Shown piece by piece: positions 5,113 to 61,152 of a DNA stretch of 64,000 nucleotides (position 1 is its first letter; every line of letters starts with the position of its first letter). This stretch comes from Candidatus Chisholmbacteria bacterium RIFCSPHIGHO2_01_FULL_52_32 (lineage in GTDB: Bacteria > Patescibacteriota > Microgenomatia > UBA1400 > Chisholmbacteraceae): assembly GCA_001816585.1 (NCBI GenBank), contig MHCJ01000003.1, forward strand, positions 82,100 to 146,099. Reading direction: 5' to 3'. The translations under genes were made by a program, and so were the position numbers. The notes under the pieces were generated by a model, which searched no databases, was not told the DNA's origin, and was given only the letters and a program-made list of their open reading frames with translations.

Positions 5113-5184
5113 AGGGCCATGATGTTAACGGCAGCATGGCGGTCTCCAAAACCGCTCGTCCAGGTTCGAATCCTGGTGGCCCTG
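5113..5184 (+). tRNA. trnW: tRNA-Trp (anticodon CCA)
   Basis: 72-nt cloverleaf folded by hand. Acceptor stem AGGGCCA/TGGCCCT. D-stem ATGT/GCAT with loop TAACGGCA. Anticodon stem GCGGT/ACCGC with loop CTCCAAA (anticodon CCA). T-arm CCAGG-TTCGAAT-CCTGG. Discriminator G. CCA is not encoded. Confidence 0.85.
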
Positions 5185-5267
5185 CAATGACTAGGTCATG
5201 AAACATTTGAGACTCTCAGCAGTCTCATGCCAGCTGATTTCCATTGCATTCGCTATCGAGCTCCCAA

Positions 5268-5368: not shown

Positions 5369-5632
5369 ATGGTTATGAAGAATTGGAATACTGACGTTTC
5401 TCGTTTCAAATCACCTCAGCATAAGCGCCTTTGGGAACTCTCTCAGCTTATCAATTATGGCCTCGAAGGGCGTAAACTCAACAAACGCGAACTTGCTATA
5501 AATTGGGCCGATTTGAAACCACTGCTCGATCCTGAACGGGCAAGAATGTTAGAATTTATCCTATGGAGAAAACTGTACTCACTCCCAACCAACGCGCGGT
5601 TCTGGAATCTCTCGCCCAAGAAAAATACATAA
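5369..5632 (+). CDS. Small ORF upstream of and overlapping the AbiEii-like gene (candidate cognate antitoxin, truncated AbiEi-like?)
   Basis: 87-aa ORF ending 70 nt inside the toxin gene in another frame. The assignment is purely positional; no recognisable domain. Confidence 0.3.
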   Translation: MVMKNWNTDVSRFKSPQHKRLWELSQLINYGLEGRKLNKRELAINWADLKPLLDPERARMLEFILWRKLYSLPTNARFWNLSPKKNT

Positions 5633-6225
5633 CCGAAACCTTCTTCTTGTCCGGAGGAACTGCCCTTTCTGCATTTTATTTTAAACACAGAATCTCCGAA
5701 GACTTCGATCTTTTTTCCGAAAAGGTATACGAAGCTAAAAAAGTTGCTATCTGGGTGCAAAAGGCCGCAAAAAATCTCAAGGTTCAGAAAGCTGAACAAC
5801 AAAAACTCACTGGTCAGGATGTCTATTACTTCTCTTTTGGCAAAAACGACTTTGTTAAAGTAGATTTCTCGTATTTTCCGTTTCCTCACCTGGGAGAATT
5901 TACGAAATATCAAAAGCTGAGGATTTCGAGCCTTGAAGACCTTGCCGTGAACAAACTTCAGGCTATAGTAACGAGAAAAAGATCTAGAGATTACGTAGAT
6001 TTATACCTGTGTTTACGAACTCTCAAATGGTCTTCAGAAGATATGCAGAAATACTACAGGCTCAAGTTCGATATGCACGTCAGTTTTGAGCAACTTGCTA
6101 CTTCGTTTACTAACGTTGTTGATGCACACGACGCGCCAAAATTCTTGGGAAAGACATCCTGGGAGGTCGTGAGAAAATATTTTCTTTCCTTAGCCCAGGA
6201 ATTAAAAAGCAAAATTATTGAATGA
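5563..6225 (+). CDS. AbiEii/DUF1814-family nucleotidyltransferase (type IV TA toxin-like)
   Basis: 220 aa. Motif '…FFLSGGTALSAFYFKHRISEDFDLF…' matches the GGTAL…HR.SEDxD signature of AbiEii/AbiGii nucleotidyltransferases. Confidence 0.65.
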   Translation: MEKTVLTPNQRAVLESLAQEKYITETFFLSGGTALSAFYFKHRISEDFDLFSEKVYEAKKVAIWVQKAAKNLKVQKAEQQKLTGQDVYYFSFGKNDFVKVDFSYFPFPHLGEFTKYQKLRISSLEDLAVNKLQAIVTRKRSRDYVDLYLCLRTLKWSSEDMQKYYRLKFDMHVSFEQLATSFTNVVDAHDAPKFLGKTSWEVVRKYFLSLAQELKSKIIE

Positions 6226-6248: not shown

Positions 6249-6278
6249 TAGGTTCGAACGTCGTCCATCAGGTGCTGC
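6249..6278. repeat. 30-bp direct repeat, copy 1 (taggttcgaacgtcgtccatcaggtgctgc)
   Basis: Identical 30-mer at 6684-6713. The two copies bracket ORF 6307..6681 exactly. Confidence 0.7.
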
Positions 6279-6683: not shown

Positions 6684-6713
6684 TAGGTTCGAACGTCGTC
6701 CATCAGGTGCTGC
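6684..6713. repeat. 30-bp direct repeat, copy 2
   Basis: Identical to 6249-6278. Confidence 0.7.
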
Positions 6714-19998: not shown

Positions 19999-20135
19999 GA
20001 GAGAGGAATTTAGAGTTTACAATTCAAAGTTAAAAGTGAAAAATTACAATTCAAAATGAAAAGTTTCTCTCCAGACTTGTAACTTTAAACTACAACTTTG
20101 AACTTTACACTTTACACTTTAGACTTTTTAACCCT
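19999..20135. repeat. AT-rich palindromic repeat block (AAAGTTAAAAGTGAAAA / TTTACACTTTAGAC family)
   Basis: An imperfect long palindrome built from 'caaagttaaaagtgaaaa' units. The same family is at 30385-30445, 37040-37150, 38595-38690, 42448-42545, 47028-47068 and 61000-61100. Confidence 0.5.
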
Positions 20136-20153
20136 AGACCCAAGTGCCTTCTT

Positions 20154-30238: not shown

Positions 30239-31360
30239 TTAGAGGGAGAGGATGTTTTGGATGTTACTGAAGGAAGTGGGATTTTTCCCTTCGAGTTGTA
30301 CCTGATCGAGGATAAGAATAGGGTTTAACCTGCCTGCCGGTGGGGCAGGGGTATAGGGTTTAGGGTATAGGTGGGCAGTTAAGATTTTCATCCGTTTCTC
30401 TTCACTTTTAACTTTTAACTTTTGACTTTTAACTTTTACTTTCGTCCAGATACCTGGCCAGGGAGAGAAGGCGCGAACAGCACGCTCGAGAAAATCGGCT
30501 CGGCCGACCGAAATTTTCTTGGCTGCTGAAGGGTTATCTTGAATGGCTTTTCTCTTCTGTTGTGTCTGCCATGCCTTTGGCCTGGCCGTCGCAGCCGGCG
30601 AAAATTTGTCGACCTCGCTCTGTTGAAAAACTTCTTTGAGCCGTTGATTGAGCCTATTTGGGGCGAAAAGTTTCCCTGCCATTGCCTGTTGGATGAGTTT
30701 CCAGGGAACAAAGCCATCATCGCGGGTGAGGCGGGGAGCGTAGGTGGCTCTCAGATGATCTTGTGCGCGGGGAGTGATCTTTCCTTCCACCCACGAGCGG
30801 AGGATGGTGATGAGGACTTCGCCGCCTTTAGAAAAAAGACGTTGGTAGAGCGTTTTTGAGGTGTCGTCCGCGCGGATTTCTTCCTTGAACTGAGCGATAA
30901 TCGGACCGTGGTCAAACTGCTCATCCATCCTGATGATCGTCATTCCGGTTTCTTTTTCGCCGGTGAGAATGGCGAACTCTCCGGGTGAGGCGCCGCGGAA
31001 TTTTGGCAGAAGAGAGGGGTGAAGGTTGAGACACCCATGCTTGGGGTAGTCGAGGAGTTCCTTTGGAATGAGTTGGGCGTAGTCAGCGACGATCGCAACA
31101 TCCAGCTGTGGAAGGTTTAATACCTTTATGGGAGTCTCCCTTAAAGGTGCGGGGGTTATGACGGGAATGAAATGTTCTTTAGCAAAAGTGTGGGGCGGGG
31201 TTTTGGTTAATATCTGTCTTCTGCCTACCGGACGAGGCGGAGCGGTTATTACGAGTTTTACTGGAAACCTCGCGTCTAATAAGGCTTTGAGGACGGTTAC
31301 CGAGTTTGGGGAAGAGCCAAAGAAGGCTAAAGAAAACGGTCGGTTCATCGAATTGATCAT
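30239..31360 (-). CDS. fmt: Methionyl-tRNA formyltransferase Fmt (with C-terminal repeat-derived insertion)
   Basis: N-terminal formyltransferase domain (…LNLHPSLLPKFRGASP…). A ~30-aa low-complexity insert 'KVKVKSQKLKVKSEEK…HLYPKPYTP' is encoded by the AAAGTTAAAAGT and GGGTTTAGGG repeat units at 30349-30445. Confidence 0.8.
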   Translation of the reverse strand: MINSMNRPFSLAFFGSSPNSVTVLKALLDARFPVKLVITAPPRPVGRRQILTKTPPHTFAKEHFIPVITPAPLRETPIKVLNLPQLDVAIVADYAQLIPKELLDYPKHGCLNLHPSLLPKFRGASPGEFAILTGEKETGMTIIRMDEQFDHGPIIAQFKEEIRADDTSKTLYQRLFSKGGEVLITILRSWVEGKITPRAQDHLRATYAPRLTRDDGFVPWKLIQQAMAGKLFAPNRLNQRLKEVFQQSEVDKFSPAATARPKAWQTQQKRKAIQDNPSAAKKISVGRADFLERAVRAFSPWPGIWTKVKVKSQKLKVKSEEKRMKILTAHLYPKPYTPAPPAGRLNPILILDQVQLEGKNPTSFSNIQNILSL

Positions 31361-32620: not shown

Positions 32621-32670
32621 GAAGTATCGTTAACTATGCGACGATCGTCGCATAGATAAGAACATTTAAG
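32621..32670. repeat. 3'-flank palindrome element (…AGTATCGTTAACTATGCGACGATCGTCGCATAGATAAGAACATTTAAG…), second copy at 47888-47938
   Basis: Contains a 22-bp perfect palindrome, CTATGCGACGATCGTCGCATAG. A near-identical block follows the topA stop codon. Confidence 0.45.
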
Positions 32671-37046: not shown

Positions 37047-37150
37047 TTAAAAGTTTCAAGTTAAAAATTCAAAGTTACAGTTTAATATTCAACATTGAAA
37101 CACTATCACTCATTCTTCTCTAATGCCTTTAACTTTTCACTTTTGACTTT
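37040..37150. repeat. AT-rich palindromic repeat block (AAAGTT/AACTTT family)
   Basis: 'gttaaaagtttcaagttaaaaattcaaagttacag…ctttaacttttcacttttgactttgatctttacac'. Confidence 0.45.
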
Positions 37151-37185
37151 GATCTTTACACTTCTCTTCCTGTATACTGCTGTCG

Positions 37186-38594: not shown

Positions 38595-38690
38595 GGGCGA
38601 GAGTACAAAGTGAAAAGTTTCAGAGAAGAATAAAGAATATCATTCCCAATTTTGAACTTTTAATTTTTAACTTTTACCAAATCTGGGGTT
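38595..38690. repeat. AT-rich palindromic repeat block (AAAGTT/AACTTT family)
   Basis: 'caaagtgaaaagtttcag…ttttgaacttttaatttttaacttttacc'. Confidence 0.45.
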
Positions 38691-41340: not shown

Positions 41341-42450
41341 ATGGCTGAAATCGATCAGACTGAACGTGCTTACCGAGCGGCGGTGTATGAAGTGGATGGG
41401 ATCGGGCCGGCGAGGATGAAGGTTTTGTTGTCTGCCTTTGGCAGTGCAGAGAAGGTTTGGGGAACGGAAGAGAAGAAATTTCGTGAGATTGGGCTTTCCG
41501 GGGCGATTGTATCGGAGATCCGTAAAAAACGGGCAACAGTAGAACCGAAAAATCATCTTGCGGCTTTAGCAAAGCTTGGGATCCGTGTTTTAGTCATAGA
41601 AGACGAAGAGTACCCGGAACTTCTTAAAAAGATTGATGATTCCCCGCAAGTCTTATTTGTCAGAGGGCACTTTGATGCTTCGGACGCACGGGCAATCGCG
41701 GTGGTGGGAACGCGGAAGCCGACACCCTACGGGAGAGAGGTGACCGAGCGGTTGGTTGAACAATTGGTGGCGCTGGGATTTACCATCGTGTCGGGATTGG
41801 CTCGGGGAATAGACGGGATTGCCCATCGGACCGCTTTGGCAAGCGGAGGGAGGACCATTGGGGTTTTGGCGGGAGGGGTGGATCGGGTTTACCCGCCGGA
41901 GCATGTGGGGCTTGCGGAGGATATCTCAAAGCACGGAGCCGTGGTTTCCGAATTTGCGCCGGGTAAGTTGCCGATACCGGGGAATTTTCCGGCGAGGAAT
42001 CGCGTTATTTCCGGGCTGGCTTTGGGGGTGTTGGTCACGGAGGGGGCGGCAAAATCGGGGAGCAAAATTACCGCTACCTGGGCAGCGGAACAGGGGAGGG
42101 AGGTGTTTGCGGTACCGGGGCCGATAACAAGCCACCTTTCGCAGGCGCCAGCCGACTTGATCAAACTTGGGGCAAAGGTGGTGACGGATGTTTCGGATAT
42201 TTTAGAGGAACTTCGCGTACAGGTCGCACCTGTACGCGCTGGCGAAGTACGGGAGGTTGAAATTCCATTAGAGAATCTCGGTGCAGACGAGCGGAAGGTA
42301 TGGGAGGCGCTTGCGGACGGGAGTTTGCAGGCGGATGATCTTGTGCGAAAAGTTGGAATGGAAACGAGCGCCGTTTCGGCGATCCTCACGATGCTTGAGC
42401 TTCGGGGGTTGGTGAAGCATCTTGGGGGAATGGTTTACTGTAGAAAGTGA
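41341..42450 (+). CDS. dprA: DNA processing protein DprA (Smf)
   Basis: Rossmann-like core '…GRTIGVLAGGVDRVYPPEH…' with a C-terminal wHTH. Confidence 0.85.
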   Translation: MAEIDQTERAYRAAVYEVDGIGPARMKVLLSAFGSAEKVWGTEEKKFREIGLSGAIVSEIRKKRATVEPKNHLAALAKLGIRVLVIEDEEYPELLKKIDDSPQVLFVRGHFDASDARAIAVVGTRKPTPYGREVTERLVEQLVALGFTIVSGLARGIDGIAHRTALASGGRTIGVLAGGVDRVYPPEHVGLAEDISKHGAVVSEFAPGKLPIPGNFPARNRVISGLALGVLVTEGAAKSGSKITATWAAEQGREVFAVPGPITSHLSQAPADLIKLGAKVVTDVSDILEELRVQVAPVRAGEVREVEIPLENLGADERKVWEALADGSLQADDLVRKVGMETSAVSAILTMLELRGLVKHLGGMVYCRK

Positions 42451-42545
42451 AAAGTTCAAAGTTAAAAGTGAAAACTTACCATTCAAATTCAAAACTTGCT
42501 GTCAACTTGTCACTTTCAACTGCAACTTTTAACTTTTCATTTTGA
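42448..42545. repeat. AT-rich palindromic repeat block (AAAGTT/AACTTT family)
   Basis: 'gaaagtgaaaagttcaaagttaaaagtgaaaac…caacttttaacttttcattttgaactttaaac'. Confidence 0.45.
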
Positions 42546-42858
42546 ACTTTAAACTTTTTTCACCCTAAACCCTATTGCCTAGTGCCTATTTTTTGCATTC
42601 TGCAGGAAACCTTAAAGAAAGATTTCTTCCAGAATGCAGGAAATCACGGAATTGAGGGGGACGAGGGGGGGCTTTTGAGGGCCCAAGGTAAGAAGCCTCG
42701 TCGGCTCAAATGGTGCGATTTCCTACACGCATTCTGATTCGGGTGAATCCTGAGACGTAATGCAACGCAAGTGTTGTGTTGTCCAGGACTTTCCCGGATC
42801 GATGCAGTGAATAGCGGAATGAATGATGCTCCTCATGATGGAGGAGGAATGAGTGCGG

Positions 42859-47863: not shown

Positions 47864-47982
47864 CACAAAGCTACTCTGGAATTCCCAGGAAATATCGTTA
47901 TCTATAGTACGATCGTCGCATTGATGAGAACATTTGATGAGCATCGTGCATCGTGATATGGGAGTTTTTGGGGTTGATCTTA

Positions 47983-48588
47983 TTATGAAGTGAGTAACCC
48001 GCTTTTGAGGAGTGAACGCCTGACTGCCTCAAATATTTTTTGGTGACCGCCGAGGTTGGGATGGAGGCCATCGTCAAAATCCTCATCGGTTAATAGTTGG
48101 AAAATGTCTAAATACGTAATTCTGTGTTTGGTACACACCTTTTGAAGGATTGTATTGTACTTTCGGACATTGTCTTTGCCGTAGCACTTTCCGGTAGTAC
48201 TTCTTGGTAGGGGGAGGGTTTTGGAGTCGTCTCCTTTTACTAATCCGACAAAGAATATGCTTTCGGTCATTTTCTTTGCTGTTTCAATCAGTTTGTTGAT
48301 ATTGTTCTCAAATTGGCTTAGAGGAACAACCGGGTTATCTTTCGTTTTCCTGTAGGCGGAATCATTGATTCCAACGGCAAAAATGATCAGGTCCGGTTTT
48401 CTTGACTCGGCTTCAGGCTCAAATCTTTTTAATACCTCCTCGGAGGTATCTTTATCTACCCCAAGATCGTAGAGAGCGATGAAGGGATTTATTGTTTCCA
48501 GATAGTTTCTCAATAGATTCGCCCAGGCTCCTCTAAACGGGAGAAAGGCTCCCCATGTGATACTGTCCCCAAAAACGCAGATGTTCAT
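47983..48588 (-). CDS. SGNH/GDSL-family hydrolase
   Basis: 'VFGDSIT' block I and 'DGLHPN' block V. AT-rich gene. Confidence 0.7.
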   Translation of the reverse strand: MNICVFGDSITWGAFLPFRGAWANLLRNYLETINPFIALYDLGVDKDTSEEVLKRFEPEAESRKPDLIIFAVGINDSAYRKTKDNPVVPLSQFENNINKLIETAKKMTESIFFVGLVKGDDSKTLPLPRSTTGKCYGKDNVRKYNTILQKVCTKHRITYLDIFQLLTDEDFDDGLHPNLGGHQKIFEAVRRSLLKSGLLTS

Positions 48589-48693: not shown

Positions 48694-48820
48694 CTGCCCA
48701 AGTGAGAAAGAAAGGTGATCGATTTTTTACGATTTCTTCTTTCCCTTGAGGATGATCGGATTTGATGTCGATATTGATGGTTGCGCCGGGTTTGAGCGGT
48801 CTGTTATCGTGGTTTATGAA

Positions 48821-51034
48821 ATGGCTTTATGGCAGGTTCGTAAACGAAGTGGGGAGCCTGAGGATTTCGATCCGGCAAAGATCACCCGGTCAATCGTCAT
48901 GGCGCAGTCCAATGTAGGGGTTACCGATGCCGAAACCGCCAAGCGGATCGCGAAGATGGCGGTTTCCGATCTTTCCGATCGGCTGGCGTCGGAGCGGGTG
49001 ATCGGGACGGATGAGATCGGGGATACGGTTGAGCGGATCCTGATTGACGAATCCCTCTATGTGATCGCCCGCGCCTATATCATTGCCCGCGAACGCAGGC
49101 GGCAGGAGCGGAAGGCGGAGAAGCAGTTAGGCGTGGTGGATGATGTCGGCCTGCCATACAATTCGGTCGTTGTCATTCGCAACAAGTACCTTCGCAAAGA
49201 CGACAACGGGCACCCGGTTGAGACGCCAAAACAGATGTTTCTGAGGGTGGCGCAGGCGCTGGCTCGGGCGGAATCTTCGAGAAAAGGGTTGTATGAAAAG
49301 CGGTTTTTCGATGTCATGGTTTCTCTGCGGTTTTTGCCCGGCGGGCGGACGCTTGCCAACGCGGGGACGGTCAATAATCAACTCGCCAATTGCTTTGTTC
49401 TGCCCATGCCGGATTCGGTTGAAGGGTTTTTTGAGGTGGTCAAGGCAAGCTCTATCCTCAAGAAGAACGGCGGCGCGGTCGGGTTTAACTTCGGAAAGAT
49501 CAGGCCAAAAGGGGACATTGTCGCCAGGACGAGCGGGAGGGCGTGCGGGCCGGTGGCTCTCATGAAGATCGTGAATGATGCTTCGGATATTTTGCTTCAG
49601 GCAGGCGGTCGACGGAGCGGGAATATGGTCATTTTGCCGGTATCCCATCCTGACATTTTGGAGTTTATCACCTGTAAGGAGGATGAAACGCTTCTTCCCC
49701 ACATCAACTATTCCCTGGGTGTGACGGGGAAGTTCATGGAGGCGGCGGCGAAGGATCGCAGTTGGAACCTTATCAATCCGAGGAATGGCGAGGTTGTCAA
49801 CACGGTTTCGGCGCGGTCAATCCTTGAGCTTGCCTGTTCCATGGCATGGAGAAATGGGGATCCCGGCTTGGTTTTCTTGGATCGGATCAATGTGGATAAC
49901 CCAACGCCCCAAGTGGGCGTGCTTGAGGCGGTGAACCTCTGCGGGGAGCAACCACTCCTTCCATGGGAGGCGTGCAATTTGGGCAGTATCAATTTGGCAG
50001 CGCACCTTATGGGGAACGGGAAACGGACCGTCGATTGGGAGCGTCTTTCCGAGTCGGTTCGTCTCGGTATCCGCATGCTTGATGATGTCGTGACAGTGTG
50101 CGGCTATCCTCTGCGGAAGATCCAAGAGGTGGTTCGCAGCAACCGGAAGATCGGGCTTGGGGTGATGGGATGGGCGGATGTTTTGGTACGCTTGGGGATA
50201 CCCTACACCAGCGAAGAGGCATTGCGGCTGGCCCACCGGACGATGAAATTTATTCGGGAAACTGCGGAAGATGAGAGCCAGAGGCTGGGGAGAGAGAAAG
50301 GGAGTTTTCCCAATTTCAGAGGTTCGGTTTGGGAGAAACGGGGTTTCAAGCATTTTCGGAATGCGACCTTGCTTACCATCGCTCCGACGGGGTCGATCAG
50401 CATGGCGGCCGGCGTCTCGTACGGGATTGAGCCTTTGTTTGCCCTGGCTTTTTATAAAGAGGCGATGGGAGGGGTACAGCTTCCTGAAGTTAACAGCGAC
50501 CTCATGGAGGCGCTCCGGAATGCCGGTGTCGAGGAGAACGGGCTCTTGGATGAGGTGGCGCAAACCGGAACGATCCAGCACCTTACTAAGATTCCCGAGA
50601 GGATCCGCAGAGTGTTTGTGACCGCCCACGATCTCTCGATCCGCGACCATGTCTTTATGCAGGCTGCGTTTCAGAAGTATACCGACAACGCGGTTTCGAA
50701 AACGATCAATCTCCCGCATACCGCCCGGGTTGAGGATGTGGAAGCTGCCTTCGTGCTAGCCTGGAAGACCGGGTGCAAAGGGATCACGGTTTACAGAGAT
50801 GCGAGCCGAAAGGTGCAGGTCCTGCACGTCGGGAAATATTCAATAGACACAAGACACAAGACACAAGACACAAGACAGGGGAAAAAAGATGTCCCCGTGC
50901 AGGCTAAGAAGCTGCAAGCGAGTAAGCTACTAAGCTCCTCTTCCCTCGAGTGTCCGCAGTGCGGGGCGATGATGCAGATGGCGGAGGGGTGTGCTACTTG
51001 CCCTTCTTGCGCGTTTTCGGTCTGCAGTCTATAG
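48821..51034 (+). CDS. nrdJ: Class II (adenosylcobalamin-dependent) ribonucleotide reductase NrdJ with N-terminal ATP-cone and C-terminal Zn-ribbon
   Basis: ATP-cone '…QVRKRSGEPEDFDPAKITRSI…'. Class II core '…NLCGEQPLLPWEACNLGSINL…'. C-terminus 'CPQCG…CATCPSC'. Start trimmed to Met at 48821. Carries an in-frame (ACACAAG)x5 repeat at about 50846-50877. Confidence 0.85.
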   Translation: MALWQVRKRSGEPEDFDPAKITRSIVMAQSNVGVTDAETAKRIAKMAVSDLSDRLASERVIGTDEIGDTVERILIDESLYVIARAYIIARERRRQERKAEKQLGVVDDVGLPYNSVVVIRNKYLRKDDNGHPVETPKQMFLRVAQALARAESSRKGLYEKRFFDVMVSLRFLPGGRTLANAGTVNNQLANCFVLPMPDSVEGFFEVVKASSILKKNGGAVGFNFGKIRPKGDIVARTSGRACGPVALMKIVNDASDILLQAGGRRSGNMVILPVSHPDILEFITCKEDETLLPHINYSLGVTGKFMEAAAKDRSWNLINPRNGEVVNTVSARSILELACSMAWRNGDPGLVFLDRINVDNPTPQVGVLEAVNLCGEQPLLPWEACNLGSINLAAHLMGNGKRTVDWERLSESVRLGIRMLDDVVTVCGYPLRKIQEVVRSNRKIGLGVMGWADVLVRLGIPYTSEEALRLAHRTMKFIRETAEDESQRLGREKGSFPNFRGSVWEKRGFKHFRNATLLTIAPTGSISMAAGVSYGIEPLFALAFYKEAMGGVQLPEVNSDLMEALRNAGVEENGLLDEVAQTGTIQHLTKIPERIRRVFVTAHDLSIRDHVFMQAAFQKYTDNAVSKTINLPHTARVEDVEAAFVLAWKTGCKGITVYRDASRKVQVLHVGKYSIDTRHKTQDTRQGKKDVPVQAKKLQASKLLSSSSLECPQCGAMMQMAEGCATCPSCAFSVCSL
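50980..51017. repeat. Direct repeat A (last codons of nrdJ); 35/38 identical to 52643-52680
   Basis: A reads gcggaggggtgtgctacttgcccttcttgcgcgttttc. B reads gcggagaggtgtgctacttgcccctcctgcgcgttttc. In the nrdJ frame both continue to encode …CATCPSCAFS(V/A)CSL and end in a stop codon. Confidence 0.7.
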
Positions 51035-51133
51035 ACCTTTTTGGGCGGTTCTTCTTCTTGAGAGATGGGTGCAATTCCAAAATTCTTATTTCCCATCGTC
51101 TTTGATCATATATCCCTTTTACGGCAAATAAAC

Positions 51134-51161
51134 TTGACAAATTGAAAAAGCACGTTATACT
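51134..51161 (+). promoter_or_regulatory. Sigma70-like promoter TTGACA-16-TATACT inside the insert
   Basis: Read directly. Followed by hairpin CCTCAAA-taac-TTTGAGG and the ATG at 51238. Confidence 0.45.
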
Positions 51162-51237
51162 ATCGGTCATTCTTTCTTCCTCAAATAACTTTGAGGAAAT
51201 TTTATAGGCTTTATTGCTTAGTCAGGGAAACGTCTAA

Positions 51238-51999
51238 ATGAATATGAATAAGACGAGCCGAAAAATGAAAATATTGAGTCTTTTTTCAGAAATTCTTATC
51301 ACCATTGTGGTCCTATCGGGAACCGTCGTTTTGGTCGCACCGGCGATAGTTTCCGAGGTGGTCGACGGAAGCATCTCAGTATTGGCATGGGCCGACGACG
51401 ACAAGGATGACGGGGAGGAAGCTGATGATGAAGATGAGCGAGGACGCAAAGATCGGGACGACGATCAGGATGGTGAGGATGATGAGGACAATGAGGATAA
51501 TGATGGGGATGATGAAGATCAGGGGAGAGACGATGACGAAGACGACGATGAGGATAATGATAATGATGATGACGATGACAGGGATGATCGGGATCACAAA
51601 GTTGATGTCTGTCATGTTTCCCCAGGAAATCCGGCGAACGCCCATGTTGTGCGGGTCGATGCCCATGCTTGGAATCGGGGTCACAGTCCGCATAACGCAG
51701 GTAATCCGGGACACTCCCTTGACTTTCTAATGGGTTCTGGTGACAGTTGTCCACGATCGGTTGGGGGTCCCGCACCCACTCCTGGTGGACAGGGAGGTTC
51801 TTCTAGCCAATCCAGTTCGAGTTCTAGCTCAAGTTCTAGTTCAACGAGTGAATCGAGCTCGCCATCGACCGGGCAGGTTCTGGGGGCGGCTACATCTCAA
51901 TTGGCGGCAACGGGTGATGGTGTCCTTGATTTAGTGGTTCGGTTTTTGGGAGCCTTACTTTCGGGGGGCGGGATTCTCGTTTGGAGAAGGAGTCGCTAG
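51238..51999 (+). CDS. Sortase substrate: signal-anchored, extremely acidic (Asp/Glu-rich) low-complexity protein with C-terminal LAATG sorting signal
   Basis: N-terminal hydrophobic segment. A ~90-aa D/E tract and a Ser-rich tract. C-terminus 'LAATGDGVLDLVVRFLGALLSGGGILVWRRSR' is an LAxTG motif plus hydrophobic stretch plus basic tail. Confidence 0.65.
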   Translation: MNMNKTSRKMKILSLFSEILITIVVLSGTVVLVAPAIVSEVVDGSISVLAWADDDKDDGEEADDEDERGRKDRDDDQDGEDDEDNEDNDGDDEDQGRDDDEDDDEDNDNDDDDDRDDRDHKVDVCHVSPGNPANAHVVRVDAHAWNRGHSPHNAGNPGHSLDFLMGSGDSCPRSVGGPAPTPGGQGGSSSQSSSSSSSSSSSTSESSSPSTGQVLGAATSQLAATGDGVLDLVVRFLGALLSGGGILVWRRSR

Positions 52000-52590
52000 A
52001 TGCGAAGGATCGTCCGATTCCTTGCAGTTCTTTCGGTTTTGGGCGGAGCGTTCCTTTTGGCTCTGCCTTATTTTTGGAGTTCGCATAGGTCAGAAAGCGA
52101 GAGATCGCTTGAGAAGGATCAAGCTGTGATTGCGAAATCGCGAGTCGAACGCGAACCAGATGAATTGCCTTTACGGGTTCGGGTTAACAAGGTTTCAGTC
52201 GATCTGCCGGTCAAGTCGGCGACGGTTTCAGAGAACGACTGGGGACTTTATGTTGATGCGGTTTCGTACCTTAAGACGAGTGGAAAGCCTGGAAAAAAGG
52301 GAAATTTGGTGCTCTATGGGCATAATACCAATCGACTTTTAGGTCCATTGCGTTGGGCAGGGGTGGGAGATAGGGTTTTTCTTGAGACTGAAAGCCGGTT
52401 ATTGAGCTATCGAATTGTCGAGAAAAAAATCGTTCCTCCGACTCAGCTTGATATCGTTTTTCCAACGAATGATGAGCGACTTACACTGTTTACGTGCACC
52501 AACTTCAACGACGCTGACCGCTTGGTTCTTGTGGCACAGCGAAGTGCGACGTTTGGAGATTTGCTAAGCTCCGACATTTTAAGTGAGTAA
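52000..52590 (+). CDS. srt: Sortase (transpeptidase; LAxTG-type, class E-like)
   Basis: 'LVLYGHN' (catalytic His), 'LTLFTCT' (TLxTC Cys) and a downstream Arg. N-terminal membrane anchor. Its start abuts the substrate gene's stop. Confidence 0.8.
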   Translation: MRRIVRFLAVLSVLGGAFLLALPYFWSSHRSESERSLEKDQAVIAKSRVEREPDELPLRVRVNKVSVDLPVKSATVSENDWGLYVDAVSYLKTSGKPGKKGNLVLYGHNTNRLLGPLRWAGVGDRVFLETESRLLSYRIVEKKIVPPTQLDIVFPTNDERLTLFTCTNFNDADRLVLVAQRSATFGDLLSSDILSE

Positions 52591-52642
52591 CTTTACGTGT
52601 CTCCTTCCGGTTTCAATCTAGCTTGCTCCAAAGCCAGACTTG

Positions 52643-52680
52643 GCGGAGAGGTGTGCTACTTGCCCCTCCTGCGCGTTTTC
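52643..52680. repeat. Direct repeat B (duplicated nrdJ 3' terminus)
   Basis: See repeat A. An in-frame stop lies just upstream (tag at 52619-52621), so only the last ~24 codons are present. Confidence 0.7.
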
Positions 52681-52707
52681 CGCGTGTTCCTTGTGAAACC
52701 TCCCGGC

Positions 52708-52736
52708 TTGACAACCTTTGTATTATAGGGTATCAT
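52708..52736 (+). promoter_or_regulatory. Sigma70-like promoter TTGACA-17-TATCAT
   Basis: Read directly upstream of the 52813 gene. Confidence 0.45.
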
Positions 52737-52812
52737 ATGATTATTCCCGGACAGGTGGTTCGGGATTTTTTAAAGGGTTTTGTCGAAAAAAGTGTATATG
52801 CGGGGGTAATCC

Positions 52813-53586
52813 ATGGCATCATCTGAAGGAAACCAACCGTCATTTGCGCAAGAAGCTGTGCTTGAAGAAGTCGGCAGGATATTGCCCGATACTGATCGGT
52901 CTTCTTTGTACTTTTCAAACCGAGATTTATTTCGGGCGTATGGAGTGGAGTTGGGGGATATTGCCCATCAGCTTGGGGAAGTGAGCGGTGTTTATCCGAA
53001 GGAAACACGCCTTGCCTTGTCGATTTTAGCCTTCAACAAACTCGGTGAAGCTGGTGATGGACAAGACCTGACTAGAAAAGAACGGTACTTACGAGAGTCT
53101 TACCAGGCTTTGGATCAGACAGAGCAGGGTATCGTTGATGTTCTGGTAGGCTCAATTTCTCGTCCTCCCGAAGAGAGGCGAATGGTGGAGGTTGATCTAC
53201 CGTTCTATGAACAGGTCGTCAGTGCAGTGGTAGGGAAGGATTGGGAAATGCACAAAGACCTTCGTGACAGGATATTTGGTGATGAACAGTTTGACCCTCT
53301 CGTATTCAAGAAACGATTGCGTGCTGAATATGCAGTGATTCAGAGAGAGCAGTTTATAAGATGGGCGAGTGACAATTTCTCGAATGATAATGGGAATCTC
53401 GAGCGGTTTGAGGCCTTATTGGCAAAGTATCCGGATGTCGCTCCATTGTTGGACAGCAGAGTGGAAGATACCTCCACAGAGAAGCACAAACAGGTCAAGG
53501 CGATTCTATACGGGCTGAGATCAACCACTCCACCTCGCGCTGTTACTCCTGGTGTCTATCAGTCGTGGGTACGGCCTCATTCGTAA
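52813..53586 (+). CDS. Hypothetical protein
   Basis: 257-aa ORF. Confidence 0.5.
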   Translation: MASSEGNQPSFAQEAVLEEVGRILPDTDRSSLYFSNRDLFRAYGVELGDIAHQLGEVSGVYPKETRLALSILAFNKLGEAGDGQDLTRKERYLRESYQALDQTEQGIVDVLVGSISRPPEERRMVEVDLPFYEQVVSAVVGKDWEMHKDLRDRIFGDEQFDPLVFKKRLRAEYAVIQREQFIRWASDNFSNDNGNLERFEALLAKYPDVAPLLDSRVEDTSTEKHKQVKAILYGLRSTTPPRAVTPGVYQSWVRPHS

Positions 53587-53761: not shown

Positions 53762-54160
53762 ATGGATATAGAGAAGAAGCGCGTCTATGTGGTTCCGAAT
53801 GGGGATGCTCATGAGGCTCTTCATTACGGGGCAGACACCCAGATTTTCGTTGCCGGTCCGGACGGCATTCGGGGACCATACGAGACTGCAACACATGTAG
53901 TGGAGCGAGGGTTCCGGATAGTTGGAACTCTTGACCGCTTTCGGCCGCTTCCGGAGATTGCCCAAGAATTGGGTGCGGAGGATTTTGCCAGCCTTCATTC
54001 TCAGCTGAAGGCTGTGGTAAGTGCGATTCAGGGTCGGATGGAAAATGCCGATTTCTACTTGAATGAGTGTGGGGCGACAGCTGAACAAAGAGAGCGAGTA
54101 TTTACAATGGCAGAGCAATTACGTCAGGATGTGAGGGGTGAAACGTATGACAGAAGGTAG
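53762..54160 (+). CDS. Hypothetical protein
   Basis: 132 aa. AGGAGG 7 nt upstream. It overlaps the next ORF by 23 nt. Confidence 0.45.
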   Translation: MDIEKKRVYVVPNGDAHEALHYGADTQIFVAGPDGIRGPYETATHVVERGFRIVGTLDRFRPLPEIAQELGAEDFASLHSQLKAVVSAIQGRMENADFYLNECGATAEQRERVFTMAEQLRQDVRGETYDRR

Positions 54161-60298: not shown

Positions 60299-61009
60299 AT
60301 GGACGAACAAGCGGCGGGAACTCTCCTTGAGCAAGCTTCTCATACGGAGTTTTCACCTTCATGGATTTCAGAGATTCGGGCGTTAGGCTGGGACTTGGAT
60401 GGGACGCTTTACCGGGACGTCCCGGAAATACGTGAGCGGATGGAAGGGCAAGTTCTCACGACCATCTCGGAGCGTCTTGGTCAGGATCTTGCTTGGGTGA
60501 AGAAGGAATATCGACAGCGGCTCAGGAAGATCGGGAGCAATACCAAAGTGATCGGGAGCTTTGGTCTTGATGGGCCTGAGGTTGTTGACCTGTCTTTTGA
60601 TCAGATTCCCTTCGAGCAATTGCTTCGACCTGACCCGAAGCTTAAAAGAATGTTTGCGTCACTGCCAAACCTAAGGCATGTGCTGATCACCCATAACCGT
60701 ATTGACCAAGCCCGAAGAAAACTTGCCTGTTTGGGTTTGCCGGAATCGGTTTTCACCCTCGTCGTGCCGGTGTATGATTGGGAGATGAGCAAGCAAGATC
60801 CTTCCCTTTATCGAAAGGTTCTCGAGCTCTTAACAATTCGCCCTCATCAGATGCTCTACTTAGGGGATCGGGAAGCTGTTGATATCCTCCCTGCGAGGGA
60901 AGCGGGACTGCGAACGGGAATGGTGTGGGGGGATTCGAGCGCGGCTGACATCTCGCTGCCGACGGTGTACGATGTGGGGGAATTGTTTCAAGTTACAAGT
61001 GAAAAGTGA
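60299..61009 (+). CDS. HAD-superfamily hydrolase (pyrimidine-5'-nucleotidase-like)
   Basis: Motif I 'GWDLDGTLY'. Motif III/IV '…LYLGDREAVDILPAREAGLRTGMV'. Confidence 0.7.
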   Translation: MDEQAAGTLLEQASHTEFSPSWISEIRALGWDLDGTLYRDVPEIRERMEGQVLTTISERLGQDLAWVKKEYRQRLRKIGSNTKVIGSFGLDGPEVVDLSFDQIPFEQLLRPDPKLKRMFASLPNLRHVLITHNRIDQARRKLACLGLPESVFTLVVPVYDWEMSKQDPSLYRKVLELLTIRPHQMLYLGDREAVDILPAREAGLRTGMVWGDSSAADISLPTVYDVGELFQVTSEK

Positions 61010-61105
61010 AAAATGAAAAATTACAATTCAAAATTAAAAGTTTTCTCCCATAATTTTTAATTTTAAACTGCAACTTTGAACTTTGAATTTTAAACTTTAA
61101 ATTTT
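61000..61105. repeat. AT-rich palindromic repeat block (AAAGTT/AACTTT family) plus CCCTAA unit
   Basis: 'caagttacaagtgaaaagtgaaaaatgaaaaattacaattcaaaattaaaag…ttaattttaaactgcaactttgaactttgaattttaaactttaaatttttta accctaag'. Confidence 0.45.
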
Positions 61106-61152
61106 TTAACCCTAAGAACCTAATACGCTAAATAGCTAAAAGTTAACAAGCT

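Follow-up and report, generated by a model that had tools for sequence, protein, structure and literature searches.

A 'C-terminal displacement' of rhs genes has been proposed to proceed through a single crossover with a circular intermediate and explicitly without the action of an integrase (Jackson et al., 2009, PMC2935791), and displaced ends of type VI secretion system (T6SS) effector genes were attributed to homology-facilitated illegitimate recombination (HFIR) (Kirchberger et al., 2017, PMC5361080), a process that is defined in PMC3240628. In Escherichia coli, the elements e14 and phage 21 integrate in the 3' end of icd and leave the pseudogene icdC behind (PMC13626634; Hill et al., 1989, cited therein). 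Here, we describe a locus that shares features with all of these systems. It lies in a 64,000-nt stretch of DNA from Candidatus Chisholmbacteria bacterium RIFCSPHIGHO2_01_FULL_52_32 (contig MHCJ01000003.1, positions 82,100 to 146,099; the whole stretch is called the window), in which nrdJ (48752..51034), the gene of a class II (B12-dependent) ribonucleotide reductase, is followed by an inserted sortase-substrate gene pair and then by a second copy of its own 3' end. All features described from nrdJ to the right flank of the insert lie on the forward strand, and other contigs are denoted by L and a number. To our knowledge, 3'-end displacement has so far been described mainly for polymorphic toxin genes; new here would be its occurrence at an essential housekeeping gene and its recurrence within one clade of the candidate phyla radiation (CPR).

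NrdJ is a 760-aa gene call in public assemblies. It starts with an ATP-cone, has a Cys-rich domain at the C-terminus, and matches the Pfam models ATP-cone, Ribonuc_red_lgN and Ribonuc_red_lgC. Six cysteines in the C-terminal domain, CPQC...GCATCPSCAFSVCSL, form the array CxxC...CxxCxxC...C, and electron transfer in NrdJ requires every one of the six cysteines of this domain (PMC5704485). This tail is conserved across 119 homologues, 23 of which carry the identical peptide AEGCATCPSCAFSVCSL. In the window, a 40-nt direct repeat connects the end of nrdJ (50979-51018) with a site downstream of it (52641-52680) at 37/40 identity, and the similarity reaches 4 nt farther 5' (CAGA) if a 2-nt indel is allowed. 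Within the window there are two occurrences of the 15-mer GTGTGCTACTTGCCC, for a chance expectation of 0.08, and two matches were obtained in none of 100 shuffles. An earlier note on this DNA had paired 50980-51017 with 52643-52680 at 35/38 identity and had taken the former for the last 38 nt of nrdJ; the repeat is real, the partner of this segment is 52642-52679, and the segment itself spans nt -55 to -18 from the end of the gene. The gene end that is in use, copy A, reads ...MAEGCATCPSCAFSVCSL-TAG in frame up to the nrdJ stop codon (51032-51034) and comprises a conserved part (codons MAEGCATCPSCAFS, 50979..51018) and a divergent end (GTC TGC AGT CTA TAG, encoding V C S L stop, 51019..51034), which shares with copy B an identity of 4/13 and is yet synonymous. 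Copy B is an orphan gene end that reads LAERCATCPSCAFSACSL-TGA in frame (52641..52696) and is preceded by an in-frame TAG (52619..52621), as the earlier note had stated for an in-frame stop. The cargo occupies the segment between both gene ends (51035..52640). The whole arrangement is 99-100% identical over 50800-52900 in more than ten independent assemblies of different samples (ENA, NCBI, Logan, JGI), which come from the same Candidatus Chisholmbacteria population and were made with different assemblers.

Both copies encode ...CATCPSCAFS(V/A)CSL-stop. Over the 17 duplicated codons, which contain four of the six NrdJ cysteines, 12 nucleotide differences result in no more than two amino-acid differences, in agreement with the synonymous character that had already been ascribed to them. 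In a simulation with 12 random substitutions the peptide was kept as well in 3 of 40,000 trials (p ~7.5e-5), and with half of the changes being random the probability is 5.6%. Copy B would therefore not be a drifting duplicate of copy A, and both appear to have been shaped as functional nrdJ ends; we regard this coding-constraint argument as strong but not absolute. One of the two replacements, in copy B, is an Arg in place of the Gly of the EGC motif, which is invariant in 119/119 homologues, and it fits with a copy that is no longer translated. The TTG at the start of copy B (52640-52696) is a possible start codon for a free peptide of 18 residues, MAERCATCPSCAFSACSL, that would mimic the NrdJ tail. 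This peptide is probably unexpressed, because no Shine-Dalgarno-like sequence precedes it.

Five relatives with NrdJ identities of 75-79% (L020, L021, L103, L105 and L106) share topA, nrdJ and a thymidylate-synthase-like gene with the window. Between nrdJ and the thymidylate-synthase-like gene they contain two to four small, mostly unrelated open reading frames (ORFs) and neither the inserted segment nor any sortase pair, which is the outcome of the comparison of orthologous loci that had been proposed earlier. To the right of copy B, the gene p132 (53762..54160) is homologous (40% identity, E = 5e-20) to an ORF that occupies the corresponding place after nrdJ in L106; p132 is thus native to the interval downstream of nrdJ, and the DNA right of copy B belongs to the ancestral locus. 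Directly 3' of copy B, a promoter-like site (TTGACA-17-TATCAT, 52708..52736, 11/12 matches) faces the gene p257, which is an ORFan and was dropped as evidence of nativeness. The 3' flanks of tails A and B show no significant similarity to the flanks of the relatives. Over the last 29 nt, the numbers of matches of copy B versus copy A to five Chisholmbacteria relatives are 22 v 18, 21 v 20, 22 v 21, 19 v 16 and 18 v 18, and copy A is closer to four Beckwithbacteria-type genes, also in its serine codon. Moreover, the Ser codon is AGT in copy A and TCN in copy B as well as in the five Chisholmbacteria relatives, a difference that is slow to change. Taking together this codon affinity, the synteny of p132 and the analogy with the sister case described below, copy B may be the native, displaced terminus and copy A an incoming foreign terminus that is now used by nrdJ. 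The earlier claim that DNA was inserted in the 3' end of nrdJ together with a replacement terminus is borne out by the in-frame tails, by the relatives without the pair and by this sister case.

The conserved part of the repeat can be accounted for by ordinary conservation of the gene. The orthologue L103 agrees with copy A at 37/40 positions and then at 6/13, which equals the pattern of A versus B (37/40, then 4/13). As L103 matches copy A as well as copy B does, no special or homogenised att core is needed, and the conserved gene end suffices as homology. The tail-coding sequence is, by these alignments, very conserved at the nucleotide level within the clade. The steep drop in identity between A and B (Fisher p = 3e-5) had been considered a crossover signature and was abandoned since the orthologue shows the same pattern; the exchange point would lie in or near the conserved part of copy A.

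The same gene end has received DNA in other members of the clade. In L021, a second orphan tail, ...CPSCAFSICSL-stop, lies 51 nt after the gene's own nrdJ stop, and the JGI contig L107 (2570-2700), with an nrdJ that is 92% identical to that of L021, represents the matching empty site. Relative to L107, L021 contains a 102-nt insertion (L021 9194-9295, with a junction that is ambiguous by 1-2 nt), which carries no gene and brings a new nrdJ tail: the orphan equals the native tail of L107 at 38/38 positions and its 3' flank does so at 41/50, and the active tail has 13/38 mismatches to L107 against a background of 8%. This comparison shows directly that L021 has kept its native end as the orphan and now uses a foreign one. 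L022 from a Beckwithbacteria genome (2175-3060) provides a third case, in which nrdJ is followed by a 25-nt palindromic hairpin, a reverse-strand gene, the hairpin again, and an orphan tail SCAFSVCSL-stop of 30 nt that is 29/30 identical to the active end. This insert of 813 nt has a 244-aa membrane-protein gene on the opposite strand as cargo, and it is bounded by the 25-nt palindromes CTTCAGGTACTCTACTTGAAGTTAC and CTTCAAGTACTCTACTTGAAGTGAC, which could be terminators or element termini. A kinase gene starts 8 nt after the L022 orphan, and the same kinase gene directly abuts nrdJ in L023-L025, which supports the orphan as the native end here as well.

Scans for the peptide motif over 89 loci (~1 Mb) returned exactly three orphans, those of the window, L021 and L022, all of them 3' of nrdJ and on the same strand, and the strict motif had 0 matches in shuffled sequence. 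Two weak matches of a stricter pattern scan, in L055 and L068, were rejected as chance. Orphan tails occur thus in ~3/12 loci of the clade with the CAFSxCSL ending and in 0 of ~75 loci from other phyla. The junctions differ between the events (at about -57/-61 in the window, -38 in L021 and -30 in L022), the cargo is different in each, and similarities between the insert edges are not significant (p = 0.06-0.5). On the evidence of these loci, new DNA has landed repeatedly at the conserved nrdJ end, with at least three such events in this clade. As a separate observation, the identity of L021 and L107 rises from the 92% background to 100% between -193 and -77 of nrdJ, which suggests a recent exchange in this region.

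The locus shows no sign of a dedicated mobile element. Integrase, resolvase and transposase domains (Pfam) are found neither in the insert, as had been stated earlier for recombinases in the segment between the copies, nor in any sizeable ORF of the window. In terms of transposons, insertion sequences or miniature inverted-repeat transposable elements, the window insert has neither terminal inverted repeats nor a transposase, and the L022 insert does have the 25-nt palindromic ends. Of the competence machinery, the window encodes DprA (41341-42450), and the remainder lies beyond it.

The arrangement resembles that of rhs genes and the analogous orphan 3' ends of CdiA and T6SS effector genes in several respects. 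There as here, an intact gene gains a new 3' tip together with downstream cargo, the silent old tip is moved downstream and has at its start a short homology to the conserved gene part, an integrase does not appear to take part, and the process recurs at the same gene. This order of gene, new tip, cargo and an old tip starting with conserved homology is found in the window, in L021 and in L022, and the old tip is the ancestral one in L021 by comparison with L107, in L022 with the support of L023-L025, and presumably in the window. Unlike those systems, the target here is an essential housekeeping enzyme rather than a polymorphic toxin, and both tips encode nearly the same 17-residue peptide so that there is no functional diversification. 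Furthermore, the tip is very short (30-57 nt), orphans occur singly instead of in arrays, and in place of an immunity gene the inserts bring a sortase-substrate pair (window), a membrane protein (L022) or no cargo gene (L021). The likeness to e14 in icd consists in the in-frame and mostly synonymous replacement of a housekeeping 3' end, with the native C-terminal fragment at the far end of the insert. However, e14 is a 15-kb prophage with its own integrase, SOS-inducible excision and a fixed att site, whereas the nrdJ inserts are 0.1-1.7 kb in size, have variable junctions and show no recombinase. With HFIR the locus would share the capture of ~1 kb of foreign DNA, a typical insert size, beside a homologous anchor without a dedicated recombinase, and the genome encodes DprA (PMC3240628). 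Classical HFIR usually deletes recipient DNA, but here the recipient's gene end is retained, and no donor, anchor crossover or junction microhomology was identified in the window.

We consider it rather probable that nrdJ underwent a 3'-end (C-terminal) displacement by homology-anchored general recombination without a dedicated recombinase. A foreign DNA carrying its own last nrdJ codons, a terminator-like hairpin, a promoter and the sortase-substrate pair would have recombined with the chromosome, and the unusually conserved coding sequence of the Cys-rich NrdJ tail would have provided the homology. As an outcome, nrdJ would end in the incoming copy A, followed by the cargo, and the original copy B would have been pushed 1.66 kb downstream, where it would remain untranslated directly before the original downstream promoter. 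The host's general machinery would most likely have carried out the recombination, either by a single crossover between the chromosome and a circularised fragment with a copy of the nrdJ tail, or by HFIR with a homologous anchor in nrdJ and an illegitimate join in the tail of the recipient. The data fit with either route, and a dedicated site-specific recombinase is not required. Selection would keep only those products that restore the tail, and the frame-preserving outcome would be explained by selection because four of the six cysteines required for turnover lie within the duplicated codons. General recombination is favoured by the variable junctions, the unrelated inserts, the gene-less insert of 102 nt, a core identity at the level of orthologues and the lack of a recombinase.

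Several points weigh against this proposal. The homology of 30-57 nt is short for a RecA-dependent crossover, and no sampled nrdJ locus adjoins a sortase pair, so that a syntenic donor for HFIR is not documented. In the species of the window itself, neither a donor nor an empty site nor a circular junction was detected: in look-ups with the exact NrdJ, sortase and p257 sequences, every conspecific contig found carries the insert. Among 5.8 billion proteins, no NrdJ relative between 79% and 100% identity exists. Exact-pattern scans of JGI metagenomes for the empty-site junction and for the plain core gave 0 matches and are uninformative, as the scanned collection lacked even the known junctions, although these are present in the JGI contig L019. 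The polarity in the window is derived from small codon counts and analogy. The motif CAGAC(G)TTGGC is common to the right edges of the window insert and the L021 insert, without reaching significance (p = 0.09), and the clustering of three events in the final 61 nt of a single gene could indicate targeting. Finally, the genome comprises at least 1.16 Mb, of which 64 kb were screened for recombinases.

Targeting would be expected if the insert were a small site-specific integrative cassette, either non-autonomous or decayed, whose attP imitates the 3' end of nrdJ. A tyrosine or serine recombinase from another locus would integrate it, and attL and attR would correspond to copies A and B, much as the earlier note had suggested. 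Such a cassette would account for direct repeats bordering the insert with a perfectly identical block of 15 nt, for a replacement terminus that keeps the ORF as e14 does in icd with its icdC pseudogene (PMC13626634), for the use of the same ~60-nt target three times in one clade, and for the edge motif common to the window and L021. We nevertheless judge it unlikely. The in-frame replacement end is the feature of integrative elements that is found here; an encoded recombinase, an excess of identity in the core, and crossover positions or ends shared between events are not. Neither the insert nor the window contains a recombinase, the core is no more similar than orthologues are, the junctions vary, the inserts are unrelated and, in the window, without terminal inverted repeats, the similarity of the right edges stays at the p = 0.09 given above, and one insert comprises merely 102 nt without a gene. 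In addition, flanking repeats are missing where the sortase module occurs in other contexts, and IMG/VR contains neither the core nor a relative of the sortase family. These findings speak against the attL/attR assignment as well as against the decayed integrative element or site-specific cassette system that the earlier note had offered. A broader version of the same idea, in which the nrdJ tail of Microgenomates-type CPR serves as a dedicated landing pad (attB) for small recombinase-less cassettes whose tail mimics repair the gene, and which would be mobilised in trans by an unrecognised recombinase or a competence-linked mechanism, is a speculation to which we assign a low probability. If true, it would amount to an integron-like gene-capture system that is anchored in a housekeeping gene.

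Displacement also has to be weighed against scenarios in which the two tails arose by replacement or duplication. A second complete nrdJ, with the sortase pair on its 3' side, could have been gained upstream of the native gene, followed by deletion of the native copy save its last ~57 nt. This would agree with the marks of past function in both tails, and a second lineage-specific insertion, a low-GC GDSL lipase gene, is located immediately upstream of nrdJ. We find this replacement improbable, since it needs two events where one suffices, and since the sister case L021/L107 is a 102-nt insertion of a gene end without replacement of a gene. Moreover, nrdJ-sortase synteny was seen at no other sampled locus, and the affinity of the nrdJ body to L020 and L021 matches that of the flanking topA and thymidylate-synthase-like genes. 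By this affinity analysis the nrdJ body is uniformly Chisholmbacteria-like, and a sliding-window version revealed no foreign tract at a resolution that is low because the relatives are only 70-80% identical. A local duplication of the gene end, as a long target-site or tandem duplication upon insertion of the cargo with later drift of copy B, is suggested by L022, in which copies of 29/30 identity surround an insert with 25-nt palindromic bounds in the manner of a target-site duplication. For the window, though, it is very improbable: the 12 nucleotide and two amino-acid differences clash with neutral drift in the simulations described above, the insert lacks terminal inverted repeats, and in L021 it is the active tail that differs at 13/38 positions with the orphan being identical to the empty-site allele. 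Errors of assembly, which the earlier note had named as an artefact or a collapsed repeat, are practically eliminated by the identical structure in the more than ten independent assemblies from different assemblers.

If the displacement proposed here is correct, the locus represents a concrete route of gene acquisition, in which a short and extremely conserved end of an essential gene acts repeatedly as a recombination anchor and the products are filtered by selection on the Cys-rich tail. Bacteria of the CPR (Patescibacteria) have tiny genomes with few recognisable mobile elements, and their acquisition of genes for the cell surface and for host interaction is poorly understood. The three loci suggest that orphan gene ends could be of general use for recognising recent gene gain in uncultured lineages. 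They also hold a warning for annotation, as the last codons of such genes may be xenologous.

The cargo itself is an ordinary two-gene module in an unusual place. As the earlier note had recognised, the insert brings its own promoter, a near-consensus sigma-70-type promoter-like site (TTGACA-16-TATACT, 51134..51161) with 11/12 matches, which is followed by a 9-bp hairpin in the 5' leader (51177..51198) and by the sortase/substrate pair. The substrate gene (51238..51999, 253 aa) was aligned with the genes that precede homologous sortases in L100, L101 and L102. Its product starts with a hydrophobic helix, which is followed by a low-complexity tract rich in D/E, a CH..NP..GH core and a linker rich in Ser, and at the C-terminus the LAATG-type sorting signal VLGAATSQLAATG precedes another hydrophobic helix and a basic RRSR tail; VLG..T..LA.TG is invariant in the alignment with the L100, L101 and L102 counterparts. 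The adjacent sortase gene (52000..52590, 196 aa) is intact (Pfam PF04203, 9.7e-18), with His108, Cys166 and Arg174 being invariant among five homologues in the alignment; TIGR01076 scored above its cut-off and no class-specific model passed. Four relatives of this sortase are detectable in 5.8 billion proteins. A homologous substrate gene precedes the sortase in L100, where the module resides in a different neighbourhood beside metK, and in L101, and L102 contains a partial upstream ORF with the same sorting signal. The window thus combines a domain with catalytic His, Cys and Arg with an adjacent LPXTG-like protein, and three homologous pairs conserve the end of the substrate. In the conspecific contig L005, a deletion of 17 nt (window 51574-51590) within the D/E-rich tract truncates the substrate to a 116-aa call; the acidic tract is made of imperfect 9-nt repeats and may be variable in length.

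Variation was likewise observed in the linker of nrdJ, where the heptanucleotide ACAAGAC is repeated five times in tandem (50845..50879) just 5' of the Cys-rich tail. The conspecific contig L017 (413-419 region) lacks one 7-nt unit, which leads to a frameshift of NrdJ before the Cys-rich tail and to a gene call that ends ~100 nt early. The missing unit could reflect either variation by slippage or an error in the assembly. Heptamer repeats are also found in the nrdJ linker of relatives, namely CGTCAAG in L020 and AAGCTAA in L021 and L107. Overlapping the nrdJ stop codon, a pattern scan detected a terminator-like hairpin (GGTCTG...UAGACC with a T5 run, 51019..51042), which folds weakly (centroid -6.5 kcal/mol, z = -0.18) and is thermodynamically unexceptional, and an Rfam scan of 48-54 kb returned nothing above threshold. 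On the other side of nrdJ, the gene of the GDSL-family lipase (47983-48588, reverse strand) is placed between topA and nrdJ, has a GC content of 0.43 compared to 0.55 in its neighbours and is absent from all relatives, so that nrdJ lies between two lineage-specific insertions, this gene and the sortase insert. Beside the lipase gene (47889-47935) and again at 32621-32667 there is a 47-nt repeat that contains a GC-rich palindrome.

Further repeats are distributed over the window. A perfect 30-nt direct repeat, TAGGTTCGAACGTCGTCCATCAGGTGCTGC, at 6249-6278 and 6684-6713 encloses a unit of 435 nt, in which an ORF encodes a Cys-rich protein of 124 aa with a hydrophobic helix at the N-terminus; the unit is positioned just 3' of an AbiEii toxin gene (5563-6225) and near tRNA-Trp (5113-5185), and it looks like another cassette-type insertion with a sequence that is unrelated to the nrdJ repeat. 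Intergenic blocks with 7-nt periodicity, of AAAAGTT-type and then AACTTTT-type, form long inverted pairs at 20014-20144, 30390-30451, 37052-37181, 38642-38689, 42432-42574 and 60991-61122 and may belong to a genome-wide family of bidirectional terminators or to a repeat element. Dispersed repeats of 80-103 nt that are 77-90% identical and contain internal hairpins (18100-18179/22551-22630 and 2102-2204/22576-22678) could be a small RNA or a miniature element.

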